Source: a virus (taxonomy: Duplodnaviria > Caudoviricetes). From it: a DNA stretch of 38,970 nucleotides. Position 1 is the first letter of the stretch, and each line of letters starts with the position of its first letter. Location: positions 1 to 38,970 of IMG/VR virus record IMGVR_UViG_3300020045_020419; one strand, 5' to 3'. The position numbers were made by a program, and so were the translations under genes. Under the pieces are notes generated by a model. It did not search any database. It was not told the DNA's origin and saw only the letters and a program-made list of their open reading frames with translations. This document shows positions 6,680-34,616 of this stretch, piece after piece.

Positions 6680-7229
6680 TCAGGATTATATTATCAATCT
6701 GCTTAAATACTTTTCGAAGTTTGTTCCAAAAACAGTTTTGCAGGATATTTTTCAGCAGCCGGAACAAAGCCGGAATGCCGGATATAATGAACTTGTAGCT
6801 GAAATAATGTCACATGATGACTTGTCAGTATTCGACAATGTAGGTACATTTATCGTTTCTGCCAATCGTAAATTTGTGATTGATAGCGTAAAAAATTCAA
6901 CAGGGATTGTGCTGTTTGTCGAGTATGGCGAATTTTCATTTAATCCTTCTTCAGAGTTAGGAGTGACTGAGAAAATAGGTATAACAGTAGCTCATGAGTA
7001 CACCATGACCAACAACGACAATCTCAACGAAGCGCTGTTGATGAACGAATGTAACAATATTCTCAACCACATATTGCTAACCATGGAAGCGGACCAGGAG
7101 GAACTTGAAGCCTGTGGATTGAGTAGATTAATCCGTTTCCCGGCCAATATTTTTCCGGTAGATCCAGAAAGTTTTTCGGACAGAACCGGATGGACAGCAT
7201 TATTCAGTAACGAAAGCTCAGTATTATGA
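6672..7229 (+). CDS. Hypothetical virion protein (possible tail terminator/neck)
   Basis: 185 aa acidic protein, translationally coupled; positional call. Confidence 0.5.
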   Translation: MNNQDYIINLLKYFSKFVPKTVLQDIFQQPEQSRNAGYNELVAEIMSHDDLSVFDNVGTFIVSANRKFVIDSVKNSTGIVLFVEYGEFSFNPSSELGVTEKIGITVAHEYTMTNNDNLNEALLMNECNNILNHILLTMEADQEELEACGLSRLIRFPANIFPVDPESFSDRTGWTALFSNESSVL

Positions 7230-7618
7230 CATTAGCAGAAAAACAACAGGAGTTTATTGAATTATTCAATGAGCTGGGCGAATGGCCTAACCGCTTCACT
7301 TATCTGATTGCCATTGGTGACGAACTTCAACCTATGCCGGCACATTTGGTAATACCCGAAAACAAAATAGCAGGTTGCATGAGTAATACCTATTTTTGTT
7401 GCACTTACATTGATAATGTGGCTCACATTTACGGACAAAGCAATGCAACTATACCCAGCGGGATAATTGCAGTAATGCACGATATTTTCAACGGATGCAC
7501 GCGGGACGAAATAAGAGCTGAAATTATTAATTTCCATACCGAAACAAAACTGATTGAGAACCTTACACCGGCACGTGCCGGAGCTGTAGAACAAATGATA
7601 ACGAAATTACTTGCATGA
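7226..7618 (+). CDS. sufE: SufE-family sulfur-acceptor protein
   Basis: F..L..W..RF.YLI..G, ENKIAGC51MS (SufE GCQS), SNATIPSGII, LTPAR; 130 aa. Confidence 0.85.
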   Translation: MTLAEKQQEFIELFNELGEWPNRFTYLIAIGDELQPMPAHLVIPENKIAGCMSNTYFCCTYIDNVAHIYGQSNATIPSGIIAVMHDIFNGCTRDEIRAEIINFHTETKLIENLTPARAGAVEQMITKLLA

Positions 7619-29362: not shown

Positions 29363-29363
29363 T

Positions 29364-29468
29364 ATGAAAGCGATAACGATAAAACAACCGTGGGCTTCTT
29401 TGATAGTTAAAGGAGTAAAGGATATTGAAAATAGAACGACTAAGGCTATTTTTCAGGCGGGTCTTTAG
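29364..29468 (+). pseudogene. Truncated ASCH-domain gene
   Basis: MKAITIKQPWASLIVKGVKDIENRT matches the ASCH N-terminal signature; similarity stops at AAC 29435-29437. Confidence 0.85.
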
Positions 29469-29555
29469 CAAAATTGAATAGAAATCACAAAACTAAATTA
29501 TTAATATAAACTTGATAGAAATCACTTCCGCCCCGCTTGAAAATAGGCGTGTGTT
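29435..29555. repeat. attC-like site A (121 bp)
   Basis: AAC-N8-CTATTTTTCAGGCGGG ... CCCGCTTGAAAATAG-N6-GTT. Confidence 0.85.
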
Positions 29556-29588
29556 AGGCGGAGTACTTTCTTTCTTATTCAAAAAATT

Positions 29589-29882
29589 ATGAAAACAAGG
29601 AAACAAATTGAGAATTTAATCAAAACAAAACAACGCAAAATCAATGCTTTAAGTGACGAAATAGACCTTCTTAGAATAGAAGAACTACAAATATGTGATT
29701 CTGAACAGACATACGAAGAAAAAGAAGAAGAATGGGTTGTAAAAAGACGTCCAATTACAAAAGAAACTCATGTGATTGGTCGTGTACATTGGGACGAAGA
29801 TTTTATTGACGAAGATACAGGAGACGTAGTTACTATAAATCGAAGTCGACTTGTCCGAAAAGACGGTATCTGGATTTTTTAG
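29589..29882 (+). CDS. Cassette 1 protein with an RpoB-like segment
   Basis: Coiled coil plus WDEDFIDEDTGDVVTINR; the stop overlaps the cassette arm. Confidence 0.8.
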   Translation: MKTRKQIENLIKTKQRKINALSDEIDLLRIEELQICDSEQTYEEKEEEWVVKRRPITKETHVIGRVHWDEDFIDEDTGDVVTINRSRLVRKDGIWIF

Positions 29883-29892
29883 TATTACGCCT

Positions 29893-30017
29893 AACGAAGA
29901 AGACTATGTGCATCCTGCGGGATGCGGGCTTCAAACCTTTCGCAAAGCGAAAAGGTGAAAGCGGGAATATAGACTTCGGAATGCGATTCAGCCAGTAGGT
30001 GAACATAGACGAGTGTT
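29893..30017. repeat. attC-like site B (125 bp)
   Basis: AAC-N8-CTATGTGCATCCTGC ... GTAGGTGAACATAG-N6-GTT. Confidence 0.85.
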
Positions 30018-30068
30018 ATCGGTTCGGCTTATCTTTCTTGTTATCAACAACAAAAAAAATATAAACTT

Positions 30069-30242
30069 ATGGATTTAGTATTTGTAAATGATTGCGCTGT
30101 CGACTGGTGCAATAAAAAAAATGTCGGAAAAGGAAAACAAATGTGCAAAGAACATCAAGCAAAATATGAAGCTGGTGAAAAATTAGTTGCATTTTATGGT
30201 AAAACAGTTCAAAAAAAAGAATTCCAAAATAAGACAGTATGA
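30069..30242 (+). CDS. Cassette 2 protein a, 57 aa, C-x4-C-x11-C-x2-H (not in ORF track)
   Basis: MDLVFVNDCAVDWCNKKNVGKGKQMCKEH...; ATGA overlap with 30239. Confidence 0.7.
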   Translation: MDLVFVNDCAVDWCNKKNVGKGKQMCKEHQAKYEAGEKLVAFYGKTVQKKEFQNKTV

Positions 30243-30430
30243 AAACAAACGACAACGGAGAAACTCAATCTAATCAGTTCAATTTTATAGGAAATTCAAG
30301 TATTAGTTTTTCCCATACTTTCAGAAAAAGTAAAGAGGGAAACATTCATTTGCCTTTTTTCGTGATAGCATACGGAAAAAATGGATTTGTTATTTACCTG
30401 TTGTGTTTCAGCGTCTGCGTTTCTTTTTAA
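30239..30430 (+). CDS. Cassette 2 protein b, 63 aa
   Basis: ATGA-coupled; the stop overlaps the cassette arm. Confidence 0.65.
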   Translation: MKTNDNGETQSNQFNFIGNSSISFSHTFRKSKEGNIHLPFFVIAYGKNGFVIYLLCFSVCVSF

Positions 30431-30440
30431 GCTGACCGAT

Positions 30441-30522
30441 AACGACAGCACTATGTGCGCCCAAACGTACAGAATTGTCAAACAGCATAAAACTGTCTGA
30501 GGGCAGCACATAGAGCCGTGTT
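30441..30522. repeat. attC-like site C (82 bp)
   Basis: AAC-N7-CTATGTGCGCCC ... GGGCAGCACATAG-N6-GTT. Confidence 0.85.
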
Positions 30523-30562
30523 ATGTACAGTGCTTTCTTTCTTATATTTTAAATCGTAAAAT

Positions 30563-30709
30563 ATGAATAAATGAAAATATATTTTTGAAACTGCTACTGT
30601 TCAATGTTTAATTTGTGGTAGGTTTTTCATAAAACAAATGCCGCATTTATGTGGAAAGAATTACAGAAAACATAAAATTAAATGGTTAAAATTAAAACAA
30701 AATGGATAA
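30563..30709 (+). pseudogene. Cassette 3 ORF a: CxxC/HxC mini-protein with TGA at codon 4
   Basis: MNK*KYIFETATVQCLICGRFFIKQMPHLCGKNYRKHKIKWLKLKQNG; overlaps ATG 30702. Confidence 0.5.
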
Positions 30710-30941
30710 CTGTCAAAAAGAAAAATGGCACGACTGCTGCTGTTGCAACTGTGCAAATCATTTAGAAGATTTTCATCATTGTACAACACTACCAAAACCC
30801 GAAGGAGTTTTAGGTTGTGTTTGCTCAACGCATAAAGGTTGGATTTGTCGAATGGCGTTTGACGATTCTTATAAGGTTTATTATCATTCTGGTTGGTCTG
30901 AACACGGAATGTGCGAAATGCACACACCTCGTCTTTCTTAG
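30702..30941 (+). CDS. Cassette 3 Cys/His-rich protein (11 Cys, 8 His in 79 aa)
   Basis: ORF track; the stop overlaps the cassette arm. Confidence 0.75.
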   Translation: MDNCQKEKWHDCCCCNCANHLEDFHHCTTLPKPEGVLGCVCSTHKGWICRMAFDDSYKVYYHSGWSEHGMCEMHTPRLS

Positions 30942-30951
30942 TATTGTACAT

Positions 30952-31072
30952 AACGATAGGGCTAAAAGCATAGCGGGTCTTTAGCAAAGGCAACTGAGCC
31001 GCACAAAATAATCAAAATTAATATTCACTTTCAAGAAATCACATCCGCACCGCTTGCTATTAGCCTTGTGTT
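30952..31072. repeat. attC-like site D (121 bp), homologous to site A
   Basis: AAC-N7-CTAAAAGCATAGCGG ... CCGCTTGCTATTAG-N6-GTT. Confidence 0.85.
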
Positions 31073-31107
31073 ACCGGTTGTTTTTTCTTTCTTCAAAAAA
31101 TTAAACA

Positions 31108-31974
31108 ATGGGAAAATCAAATTCAATTAGAACTTACAGAAATTCTGTAGTTATTCATTTTTCTGAACGTGGTGAGAATTTTACTTTAAAAGTTCCTCAT
31201 TATAACGATTGGATTAATTTAATCCAATTTCTTAAAAAAAGAGGTTTTAAAGTTGGCGAAAACAAATCATACAAAGAACATTACGCATGTTTATCAATGT
31301 ATAATAAATTAGGTTCTAAAAAAGACGTGAGAGTACTAATGGAAATTTGCGCAGACCATATTACACTTGAATTTGGAAACGTAAAAAACTTGTGGACTGG
31401 ACATGCTCAAAGTTTCTGGTCTGATAAAACAGACAATAGATACACTGCTACAACTTATCTTGAAGATAAAGCCGTAGAACTTGAAATAAAAAAGGTTATT
31501 GATAGGTTTAAAGCCAAAGGATTTATGTACGAGCCAAATGATAAGGATAGAACCGATATTGATAATATAATTCATTCAAATAATCATAACTCCCATATAC
31601 ACGGCAAAATTACCTGCCTTGAAGATATTGGAAAATCAATAACCGAAACATCATATAATTACACTCAAAACAGTTGGGATAGAAACCACAAAAGGATTAT
31701 ATGTGGAGATCATAAATGTTTTTACGATTACAACAAAAGGCTTGCTATCGGTGTAGCATGGCACAATATAAATAATATGTGGTGGATAATTGTAAACGGT
31801 AAAAGATATAATAAAGCATCATTTGAGCTTTTTGATTACGATCCAGCTTTGCCAAAAAGAAAACCTGCTGACAAAGATAAAATTACTCGCCTTTTGAAAA
31901 AATATGAATCTGAATTGAATTATGAAAAGTGTATGGCGATTCGGAACTATGCTAAAATTAATAACATCCTTTAA
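31108..31974 (+). CDS. Cassette 4 hypothetical protein (288 aa)
   Basis: ORF fills the cassette; no motif recognised. Confidence 0.85.
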   Translation: MGKSNSIRTYRNSVVIHFSERGENFTLKVPHYNDWINLIQFLKKRGFKVGENKSYKEHYACLSMYNKLGSKKDVRVLMEICADHITLEFGNVKNLWTGHAQSFWSDKTDNRYTATTYLEDKAVELEIKKVIDRFKAKGFMYEPNDKDRTDIDNIIHSNNHNSHIHGKITCLEDIGKSITETSYNYTQNSWDRNHKRIICGDHKCFYDYNKRLAIGVAWHNINNMWWIIVNGKRYNKASFELFDYDPALPKRKPADKDKITRLLKKYESELNYEKCMAIRNYAKINNIL

Positions 31975-32010
31975 AATCAGTGAATGCTGGTATTTTTTAA
32001 AATAACCGGT

Positions 32011-32127
32011 AACGGTCGCTACTATCCTGATTTAGGGGCTTTCACAAATGATGGATAGCGAACAAAACTTACTAATTGCACTTCGGGAGCATAACCCCAC
32101 GCCCCTAAATAGGGATAGTTAGTTGTT
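32011..32127. repeat. attC-like site E (117 bp)
   Basis: AAC-N8-CTATCCTGATTTAGGGGC ... GCCCCTAAATAGGGATAG-N6-GTT. Confidence 0.85.
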
Positions 32128-32513
32128 ATGTACCGTTTATTTCTTTTCTCGGTGTACGCTGAACTGTTATCCGGGAGCAACTCCAAAGCGTTGGGGTGTT
32201 TATATCATTAACAAACAATTTTTTATCATTAATTAAAATTTATTATTAACAAGCATTCTGCTATTGTTCAGTAAAGATTTAGTCCATGAGAAAAAAAGTG
32301 TGCAAATTCTTATCCGCATTTATGCCAAAAGATTGCAGTTAATGCTATTTAAATTAATATGTACCGTTTGCTTCGGTAAATAAGCAATGCAGACTACGTG
32401 TAGGATTAATTACCCAACGGTGGAACATAATCGAATATCTGACGAAGCACAGTACTTAGATTGAAGCGTGGGAACTACGAAAGTGCCTTAAATGAAACTA
32501 ATAATCAAAATAT

Positions 32514-32747
32514 ATGACAAGACAAGAATTTCACCAATTACCAGTATTTCATCAGCGGTTAATTGCTTCTAAAAATGGAATACAAAAAGATAAACGAGAA
32601 CGATCAAAAGCAGTTCAAGGAGTTATCGACAAAACTAGAGTACAAACAAAAGGATATACGGGTGAAGAAGCTCCGAGTGAATTTTATTCTGATAGCCGTG
32701 ATTTATACGCTGAAATAGTCAAAATGAACGGTCGCTTTTTTTTCTAA
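32514..32747 (+). CDS. Cassette 5 protein a (77 aa)
   Basis: A-rich leader; the stop overlaps a degenerate arm. Confidence 0.7.
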   Translation: MTRQEFHQLPVFHQRLIASKNGIQKDKRERSKAVQGVIDKTRVQTKGYTGEEAPSEFYSDSRDLYAEIVKMNGRFFF

Positions 32748-32770
32748 AATAGTACATAATAAAATAATAT

Positions 32771-33001
32771 ATGGAACAAAAAATCAACTTAGGAAAAGCC
32801 AGCGCAGTACGAATACTTGTAGCTGAAGAACTTGGACTTAATCCAGAATATGTGCCACTTGCAAATGAATACATAGTAGGTAAACTTTTTCCACTTCAAT
32901 ACGGAATGCTCGAAAAAGGAGGCATTCAAGCGGTTGAATTAATCAACAACGCAGGACTAACTGATAAAGCCTCCGAACTTGCACAACGCTATTTTTATTA
33001 A
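32771..33001 (+). CDS. Cassette 5 protein b (76 aa)
   Basis: The stop overlaps the cassette arm. Confidence 0.7.
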   Translation: MEQKINLGKASAVRILVAEELGLNPEYVPLANEYIVGKLFPLQYGMLEKGGIQAVELINNAGLTDKASELAQRYFY

Positions 33002-33010
33002 ATGGTACAT

Positions 33011-33131
33011 AACGTTGATAATATGAAAAGTGGCTGCATTCGGTGAGCGAAACTATCAAACTGCAATAAACTTTGATGCGAGCTGTACGATACGAAACGC
33101 AGACAACCAGCCATTTTTTATATTATGTGTT
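33011..33131. repeat. attC-like site F (121 bp)
   Basis: AAC-GTTG-ATAATATGAAAAGTGGCTG ... CAGCCATTTTTTATATTAT-GT-GTT. Confidence 0.85.
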
Positions 33132-33181
33132 AGCGTTTCGTACTTTTTAAATCGAATTTTAAACATTTAAATATCAAAATA

Positions 33182-33718
33182 ATGGAAAAGAATTATAGAA
33201 AAATTGAATTTGGATTAGGAGATATAACCTCCGCTATGAATGAATTGAAAAGGAATAAAGATTTAGTTTGTGGCTCGTTTAACGGACAAATGCTTTATTC
33301 AGATATTGATGATATTGATACAGCTTATAAAAAGATTACAGGCAAAACAAAGGCTGAATTTGATGCTGAAAGAAAAGCTGAAAATGACCGATACAAAGAA
33401 GAGGAGAGAAAACACAAAGAAGCTATTCCTGAACTTACAAAAGAATGGATTGAAAAAGGCAAAGCGATACTTGCTGAAAAATACCATGAAACTTGGATTG
33501 AATGTGTACCAATAAGATTAGACGATTTATATAGAGGCATGGAATTAGGTAATTGCCTAACTATTGTTAAAGAACTTAATGCAGGTTGCGAACTTGCCAC
33601 AGCAAAAACCATAATTGAAGAACAAGGACACTCTGGAATGTCATTCGGTTTGGTTTGCTCAATGGTTAAATCTTTTTGCGATAGAGGTGAAGAATTTGCA
33701 AGTTACGCACGGTCTTAG
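33182..33718 (+). CDS. Cassette 6 hypothetical protein (178 aa, GHSGMS motif)
   Basis: ORF fills the cassette; the stop overlaps the arm. Confidence 0.85.
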   Translation: MEKNYRKIEFGLGDITSAMNELKRNKDLVCGSFNGQMLYSDIDDIDTAYKKITGKTKAEFDAERKAENDRYKEEERKHKEAIPELTKEWIEKGKAILAEKYHETWIECVPIRLDDLYRGMELGNCLTIVKELNAGCELATAKTIIEEQGHSGMSFGLVCSMVKSFCDRGEEFASYARS

Positions 33719-33728
33719 TATGAACGCT

Positions 33729-33782
33729 AACAACTATCTATAAAAAAATCTATTTATAAACTAACTATCAAACAATTACAAC
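33729..33782. other. attI-like site
   Basis: Last AAC, followed by N6-CTAT but no hairpin. AACTATC direct repeat at 33732 and 33763. Abuts the recombinase ATG. Confidence 0.65.
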
Positions 33783-34616
33783 ATGAATATCGGAAACTAC
33801 ACAAACCAACTTTCCAAATCAATTCGATATAAAAGGTATTCTGAGCATACGGTTAGTAGTTATGTAGCTCAAATAGAAAAGTTCCTGAAGCATTTTGAAA
33901 AAGTGGCAACAAAACCATCTGAAATATCGGCAAAGCAGATAACAGAATATTTAGGATCAATGAATAATCATGCATCGCATAAAGCAGCATTATGTGCTAT
34001 TAAGTATTTTTATAGTGAAGTTGGTCACCAACCACGTAAACTTGACAAGGTGAAATTTCCAAAAAAGAATTATAAACTTCCAATAGTACTTAGTCAGGAT
34101 GAAATACAGCGAATGTTTACAGCTTGTACTAATTTAAAACACAAAGTGATTCTTTCATTGCTATACAGTACCGGTTTGCGAGTTTCTGAATTACTTAATC
34201 TAAAGTGGAGTCATATCGATCGTAGCCGAATGATAATAAATGTTATTCAGGGGAAAGGGAAAAAGGATAGACAGGTAATGTTACCACCTACTATAATTCC
34301 ATTGCTAGAAAAGTACTGGTTAGAATATAAACCGAAAGATTATGTGCTAAATGGACAGTTTACTATTCAGTATTCACAAACGAGTGTAAATGCAGTAGTC
34401 AAAGATTTAGCCAATAAAGCAGGAATAACTAAACTAGTATACACGCATCTTATTCGTCATTGTAGCCTTACACACATGTACGAAAATGGAGTAGATATTT
34501 ATGCACTTCAAAAACTAGCCGGACATAATTCAGCTAAAACCACAGCCATATATACCCATATGTCTGATAATATAATAAGTAGAATTCAATCACCAATAGC
34601 AAACATAAATTTATAA
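33783..34616 (+). CDS. IntI-related tyrosine recombinase (277 aa)
   Basis: YSEHTVSSY, KLPIVLSQDEI, LLYSTGLRVSE, GKGKKDR, HLIRH, LAGH and TTAIY; complete catalytic set. Confidence 0.93.
   Translation: MNIGNYTNQLSKSIRYKRYSEHTVSSYVAQIEKFLKHFEKVATKPSEISAKQITEYLGSMNNHASHKAALCAIKYFYSEVGHQPRKLDKVKFPKKNYKLPIVLSQDEIQRMFTACTNLKHKVILSLLYSTGLRVSELLNLKWSHIDRSRMIINVIQGKGKKDRQVMLPPTIIPLLEKYWLEYKPKDYVLNGQFTIQYSQTSVNAVVKDLANKAGITKLVYTHLIRHCSLTHMYENGVDIYALQKLAGHNSAKTTAIYTHMSDNIISRIQSPIANINL

Follow-up and report, generated by a model that had tools for sequence, protein, structure and literature searches.

A small Bacteroidota phage protein resembles the SI1 hairpin of the host RNA polymerase and may act as a decoy

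A 97-residue phage protein, P0001, carries a long beta-hairpin that resembles the SI1 hairpin of the RNA polymerase beta subunit (RpoB) of Bacteroidota. We give slightly better than an even chance to the proposal that P0001 is a decoy for a host protein that docks on this hairpin in the polymerase. The window, that is, the whole 38,970-base stretch of DNA analysed, is a virus record with terminase-like, tape measure, CHAP endolysin, integrase, repressor-like and VapE-like genes. Its terminase matches 49 GenBank phage records, mostly phages of Porphyromonas, Flavobacterium and Cellulophaga, all at less than 60% identity. The virus is a temperate phage of Bacteroidota. The features of the protein are the following:

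29589..29882, plus strand: open reading frame P0001, 97 aa, member of an unnamed Bacteroidota phage family (open frame and family searches)
29598..29690, plus strand: residues 4-34, predicted single helix with a heptad repeat (AlphaFold2 model; covariation 14-25 and 8-32)
29751..29867, plus strand: residues 55-93, aligned to Bacteroidota RpoB SI1, about 233-273 in 9N9P numbering (hmmsearch, hhalign)
29790..29855, plus strand: residues W68-V89, predicted long beta-hairpin whose face 68/70/72/74/81/83/85 is conserved and RpoB-like (model, conservation)
29808..29825, plus strand: predicted tip of the hairpin, D74-D79 (DEDTGD), in the position that the helicase interaction motif takes, with Asp here for the Glu of TGE (model)

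The likeness to RpoB

A reading of the sequence alone had proposed that this frame encodes a small protein resembling a segment of Bacteroidota RpoB. The stretch that it quoted is present at residues 64-89 of the open frame, the reverse frame at 29589-29882 is interrupted by stops, and the resemblance is confirmed. With P0001 alone, phmmer against 177,635 PDB sequences gave as best match residues 247-269 of the RNA polymerase beta chain 9n9p_C (E 0.0068; next E 0.31). The same chain came out on top when PDB sequences were searched by hmmsearch with a family profile of 132 sequences (E 4.4e-5; next 0.035), and hhalign, aligning the family with 34 segments of Bacteroidota RpoB, returned a probability of 97.7% over 39 columns. 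9N9P is the Flagellimonas taeanensis RNA polymerase complex, according to its description (bioRxiv 10.1101/2025.06.10.658880). The family profile does not list the Porphyromonas chain 8dkc, and the 8dkc hairpin differs at several stem positions.

RpoB was also the next-best profile match in three of the four genomes that hold a family member (E 1.3e-6 to 4.7e-5); the fourth, a 1.4-Mb assembly, gave no RpoB match. In a sample of the phylum, 76 of 301 genomes matched the family profile, in 73 cases within a frame of 1268-1329 aa; these figures come from a loose first look that missed the rest and are no gauge of presence. All 29 of these long-frame matches that were read contain the RpoB segment. 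Judged by sequence comparison, the likeness is beyond chance and specific to the Bacteroidota SI1 hairpin. Other searches with P0001 added little: Pfam gave weak coiled-coil matches only and NCBIfam none, the ESM Atlas offered a single lead at 0.77, under its trust level, and GenBank phages gave matches of hairpin length only (E 0.1-0.2).

In a model of the host RpoB segment (34-row alignment, pLDDT 78), a DEDTGE loop of six residues joins strands 39-48 and 55-65, and a helix (73-82) and a strand (86-90) come next. The model matches the beta subunit of 9n9q (Foldseek E 1.4e-13), and the top row of a VIA fold search, tied with two to four other rows, was E. coli beta 226-338 in 7egs_A (Z 6.4, rmsd 2.0, 61 aligned). 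These two matches identify the RpoB segment as the hairpin of SI1/beta-i4, an insertion in the beta lobe. We take this domain to be of the BBM2 type. According to PMC11685472, the sequence insertions of Bacteroides polymerase are uncharacterised.

By sequence homology P0001 belongs with the RpoB SI1/beta-i4 domain. It shares with the Bacteroidota domain (9N9P/9N9Q, 8DKC) the hairpin W-x-E-D-F-x-D-E-D-T-G-x-V-V-x-I-x-R and its predicted register, the loop D-E-D-T-G-E/D occupying the same six residues in the P0001 and RpoB models. The overlap is limited to the hairpin and a few residues upstream of it. P0001 stops eight residues past V89 and the alignment ends at 93; this free 97-aa phage protein lacks the helices and the closing strand of SI1 and has in their place a coiled-coil helix and a third strand.

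Predicted architecture and conservation of the family

AlphaFold2, run on P0001 with 132 sequences, predicted a helix (4-34) and three strands (40-52, 57-73 and 80-91), with a loop at 74-79 (pLDDT 91.5, pTM 0.61). P0001 is thus predicted to be a helix followed by a three-strand meander with its hairpin in the RpoB register, the hairpin alone being common to the SI1 domain. The T-G pair sits at the tip of a beta-hairpin in the prediction (loop pLDDT about 91), and covariation between positions 73-80, 71-82 and 69-82 backs this register, which puts 68/70/72/74 and 81/83/85 on one face. Since residues 70-83 form a two-stranded arm by secondary structure, the conserved F72, V/I81 and I83 are probably exposed in its distal part. 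The P0001 model had no match at E <= 0.001 in Foldseek searches of the PDB and BFVD, and VIA gave nothing clear (best Z 4.5).

The N-terminal coiled coil noticed in the sequence-only reading agrees with the model, in which the 31-residue helix is predicted at pLDDT >= 90 and has a 3-4 hydrophobic repeat at positions 7, 11, 14, 18, 21, 25 and 28. The strongest covarying pair of the protein is 14-25 (z 11.8), and 8-32 also covaries (z 5.2). Residues 14 and 25 are too distant to touch within one helix, which suggests an antiparallel dimer; covariation hints that helix 4-34 likely forms a homodimeric coiled coil of this kind. The pair is Asn-Asn in 79 and Lys-Ile in 83 of 253 members, the N14/N25 states are concordant in 236 of 244 rows, and there are 32-34 changes on a fast tree. 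A kinship-corrected test with independent pairs is underpowered, having four pairs only (p 0.25).

A search of 1.84 billion representatives at 50% identity gave 248 matches at E <= 0.001, 160 of them at <= 1e-10; among the 150 matches listed, nearly all were full-length, in proteins of about 93-175 aa. Extra members from Bacteroidia and Cyclobacterium, annotated at most as 'hypothetical protein', came from a second search. Members occur in Bacteroidota prophages, lying among small phage genes in genomes of Arachidicoccus, Lutibacter, Flavobacteriales and Bacteroidia, and in viral contigs. In the phylum sample a full-length member was found in one of 301 genomes, the centre genome of the sample, and in GTDB a first scan gave no relatives while a degenerate pattern found four. 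One sequence, P0005, diverges abruptly after the DED motif and was excluded from all counts. A word search for longer relatives of P0001 gave none among 34 candidates. Two more distant proteins of the coiled-coil-plus-hairpin type (L159:354-722 and L160:2881-3189) carry a C-terminal extension and are possibly a sister family.

Conservation is concentrated on one side of the hairpin. Over 154 members, the mean entropy is 0.85 bits for the face 68/70/72/74/81/83/85 and 3.0 for 69/71/73/79/80/82/84, and identity to RpoB reaches 93% at W68, 75% at E70, 87% at F72, 95% at D74, 71% at I83 and 99% at R85. At the tip, E75-D76-T77-G78 are the RpoB residue in 68-74% of members. The RpoB hairpin is nearly invariant on either face in 32 segments, which were chosen by the family profile and are hence biased towards the family. 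The conservation of one face and of DEDTG fits a binding mimic.

A decoy, its candidate partner and the alternatives

The sequence-only reading had gone further and proposed a molecular mimic that titrates a host factor or defence sensor, or that modulates transcription. The RpoB match and the conservation of one face in 154 members support mimicry, and because of both, titration of a host factor is a fair inference. We hypothesize that P0001 would display a copy of the SI1 hairpin on an unrelated scaffold and act as a two-armed decoy, capturing the host protein that docks there. The antiparallel coiled-coil dimer would present one hairpin at either end, expression would come by read-through out of the replication operon, and P0001 would compete with RNA polymerase for the partner.

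Among named candidates for this partner we put first the DNA-repair helicase UvrD/PcrA with its C-terminal Tudor domain, giving it about half of the weight of the decoy proposal and the rest to another factor. In E. coli the C-terminal domain of UvrD binds the beta lobe insertion SI1/beta-i4, the complex solved in 7EGS with the beta lobe domain. In B. subtilis the PcrA Tudor domain binds the tip of the SI1 hairpin, as described in the accessible text of Urrutia-Irazabal et al. 2021 (PMC8318588), which defines the helicase interaction motif as [VIL]-D-x-x-T-G-E-[VIL]-[VILT] and, with no mention of Bacteroidota in that text, reports that changing the motif Glu to Ala or Lys abolishes PcrA pulldown in B. 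subtilis. Searches for the Tudor family PF21196 found it in 61 of 61 genomes and in 30 of 31. With this domain sequestered, the helicase would lose its link to transcribing polymerase, which could shield phage replication, recombination or single-stranded intermediates from the helicase.

P0001 resembles the carriers of this motif (RpoB, UvrB, YxaL and YwhK) by having D-x-x-T-G at a hairpin tip and by agreeing at eight of the nine pattern positions. However, it has Asp for the Glu of TGE, and the pattern, found in 31 of 32 Bacteroidota RpoB segments, is found in only one of 154 family members, P0001 not being that one. The family is not conserved at the Glu that is critical for PcrA: position 79 is Glu in 32%, Lys in 25%, Asp in 14% and Asn in 10% of 253 members. 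The hydrophobic motif positions 73 and 80 fall on the variable face, and what this phage-encoded family conserves is on the long stem of Bacteroidota type. P0001 appears to work like a mimic of the helicase interaction motif but to be no member of that motif class. All these mismatches count against a decoy, as does the possibility that one conserved face reflects packing inside the protein or the dimer, and the dimer signal is not significant after kinship correction.

The weight of the motif mismatch can be gauged on a host protein. In the phylum sample the UvrB helicase interaction motif (L187-L216) is degenerate, unlike that of RpoB; among 24 sequences recovered from 30 loci, five have Glu at the motif position and none matches strictly. 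The Glu rule may be loose in Bacteroidota, or UvrB may simply not bind there, and the mismatch of the phage family is thereby softened, not removed. A complex prediction for P0001 30-97 (132 rows) with a Bacteroidota UvrD Tudor domain (62 rows) reached scores of 0.00 and 0.15, below the mark of 0.32 (controls not folded, non-cognate pair).

The hairpin could instead bind RNA polymerase itself, where the host SI1 hairpin packs, and modulate transcription directly. In favour of this, the conserved residues (W, E, F, V/I, I, R) are those of the long Bacteroidota-type hairpin and not of the helicase motif, and the host hairpin hardly varies on either face. Phage mimics that bind polymerase exist: bioRxiv 10.64898/2026.10.05.756390 describes mycobacteriophage D29 gp53, a sigma-factor mimic that binds polymerase. 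P0001 is likewise a small phage protein and gp53 acts on the host transcription machinery by molecular mimicry, but P0001 copies a piece of the polymerase itself. We think that direct binding is unlikely, though the strongest of the rival accounts; in the Flagellimonas structure the lineage-specific insertions are at lower resolution (10.1101/2025.06.10.658880), which suggests mobility and not a tight dock. Next in probability, and also unlikely, is that the hairpin is a relic from RpoB or from a longer phage family that is now structural or oligomer-forming, with, for example, nucleic-acid binding through the basic 52-58 hairpin. The drift of the motif Glu and of one entire face would agree with this, as would the Arg/Lys-rich tip of the other hairpin and the resemblance of the P0001 model to generic beta-meanders. 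However, the D-E-D-T-G tip equals RpoB in about 70-95% of members that are less than 50% identical to one another, and a mere fold would tolerate other acidic or turn-forming residues.

Some features of the gene, namely its small size, its mobile cassette site and the repeated capture of the surface, fit counter-defence genes, and P0001 might decoy an anti-phage sensor that watches over RNA polymerase at SI1. We know of no defence system that senses SI1, a literature search turned up none and no result points to a sensor, and we rate this account as quite improbable. Least credible of all is that chance, or convergence on an acidic D-x-x-T-G turn, produced the match. In its favour, P0001 by itself reaches no better than E 0.0068, and D-x-x-T-G hairpins also occur in the unrelated UvrB, YxaL and YwhK (PMC8318588). 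Against this stand the 39 columns aligned at 97.7%, the W, E, F, I, E and R outside the turn, which are specific to Bacteroidota RpoB, and the Bacteroidota hosts of the family. This account is largely refuted already, and a convergence driven by selection for mimicry would still fall under the decoy proposal.

The same host surface appears, from sequence, to have been captured repeatedly by phages. A 250-310-aa Bacteroidota phage family (PHROG 35807, 283 positions, unknown function) contains the SI1 module whole; the module is present at 47 of the 48 viral loci, in truncated form at one of these. P0001 residues 67-93 match this profile at positions 36-62 only (E 1.9e-5), not across most of its length. 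The two have the same RpoB-derived hairpin and no other similarity: the larger family carries the whole SI1 module N-terminally (53 aligned residues, E 9.8e-10 to 9n9p_C), retains the Glu in every one (100%) of its 23 unique hairpins, and adds two domains, with a DUF4494 match in one member. The Bacteroidota SI1 module was also seen in a ParB-HTH fusion (L162:8-1132) and, placed C-terminally, in a protein of 158 aa (L186:31-507).

A tempting but in our view doubtful idea is that phages of Bacteroidota took over the same polymerase surface on two or more occasions, in one case with the entire domain and in the other with the hairpin alone, set on a dimeric scaffold. The target of this capture would be a factor specific to Bacteroidota that recognises the W-E-F/V-I-R face of the long SI1 hairpin and not the TGE motif. 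The family would then be a conservation map and a bait for a new transcription factor or a polymerase-monitoring defence sensor. One SI1-hairpin face kept across hundreds of divergent sequences marks residues that matter, and P0001 could serve as a small soluble bait for finding the SI1 partner. Should the decoy capture UvrD, it would act as a phage-made inhibitor of the coupling between helicase and polymerase, of which our literature search found none described; should it capture something else, this would indicate a new factor that binds polymerase, in a phylum that is major in the gut and the environment. Among papers outside subscription, none was found that deals with the P0001 family or with SI1 hairpins copied by phages.

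The cassette array around the gene

The gene is the only one of an integron-like cassette, the first of six units:

29433..29560, no strand: attC-like imperfect hairpin, upstream (DNA fold of the native sequence alone, -14.8 kcal/mol for the top strand)
29553..29895, plus strand: cassette 1, with complementary 8-nt ends, enclosing only the 97-aa frame
29888..30022, no strand: attC-like imperfect hairpin, downstream (arms visible in the sequence; the minimum-energy fold pairs the outer arms incompletely)
33783..34616, plus strand: integron-integrase-like tyrosine recombinase, 277 aa, which closes the six-cassette array (context)

The name 'Cassette 1' given to this unit in the sequence-only reading proved apt. 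It starts with GTTAGGCG and ends with CGCCTAAC, complementary over 8 nt, is flanked by two hairpins, and in its 343 bases has no other frame of at least 45 aa. Its own end pair scores best in a cross matrix (8, against 4-5 for the others). The five units that follow have complementary ends of 9-10 bases, with imperfect hairpins in between. By the conventions for attC sites we call these hairpins attC-like.

Like integron cassettes, the unit has a promoterless-looking frame between imperfect hairpins, complementary core ends of the GTT-RRRY / RYYY-AAC type and an adjoining IntI-like recombinase. In contrast to them, the array is phage-borne and its genes face the recombinase. This recombinase scores best with integron-type models, yet below their cut-offs: 170 bits with TIGR02249 (cut-off 265), the best stretch covering profile positions 3-176 of 315, and 197 with NF040815 (cut-off 220). 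Promoter scans around the cassette gave nothing exceeding chance. Cassette ends of 9-10 bases were found at four of eight homologue loci, two of these being near-identical, and since they are absent at the other four, the role of the protein is not bound to cassettes.

Several other observations concern the array (29553-34616) and its surroundings. The last of the six units abuts the short IntI-like recombinase with no hairpin beyond it, and the cassette genes are all directed towards the recombinase, which is the direction of the phage replication operon. The 5' end of an ASCH-like gene (29363-29437) is severed precisely at the first attC-like hairpin, suggesting that the array occupies a secondary site inside an ASCH gene. 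This fragment shares its start with an intact, Pfam-confirmed ASCH gene (L050:4753-5295), and the remainder of the gene was not seen adjoining the array. Among the other cassette proteins, a Cys/His-rich one of 79 aa (30702-30941) has no Pfam, PHROG or NCBIfam match, and one of 288 aa (31108-31974) matches PHROG 7674, of unknown function (E 4.2e-24). Elsewhere in the window, a gene of the SufE family of Fe-S metabolism (7226-7618, E 4.6e-25) lies amid the head-tail genes.
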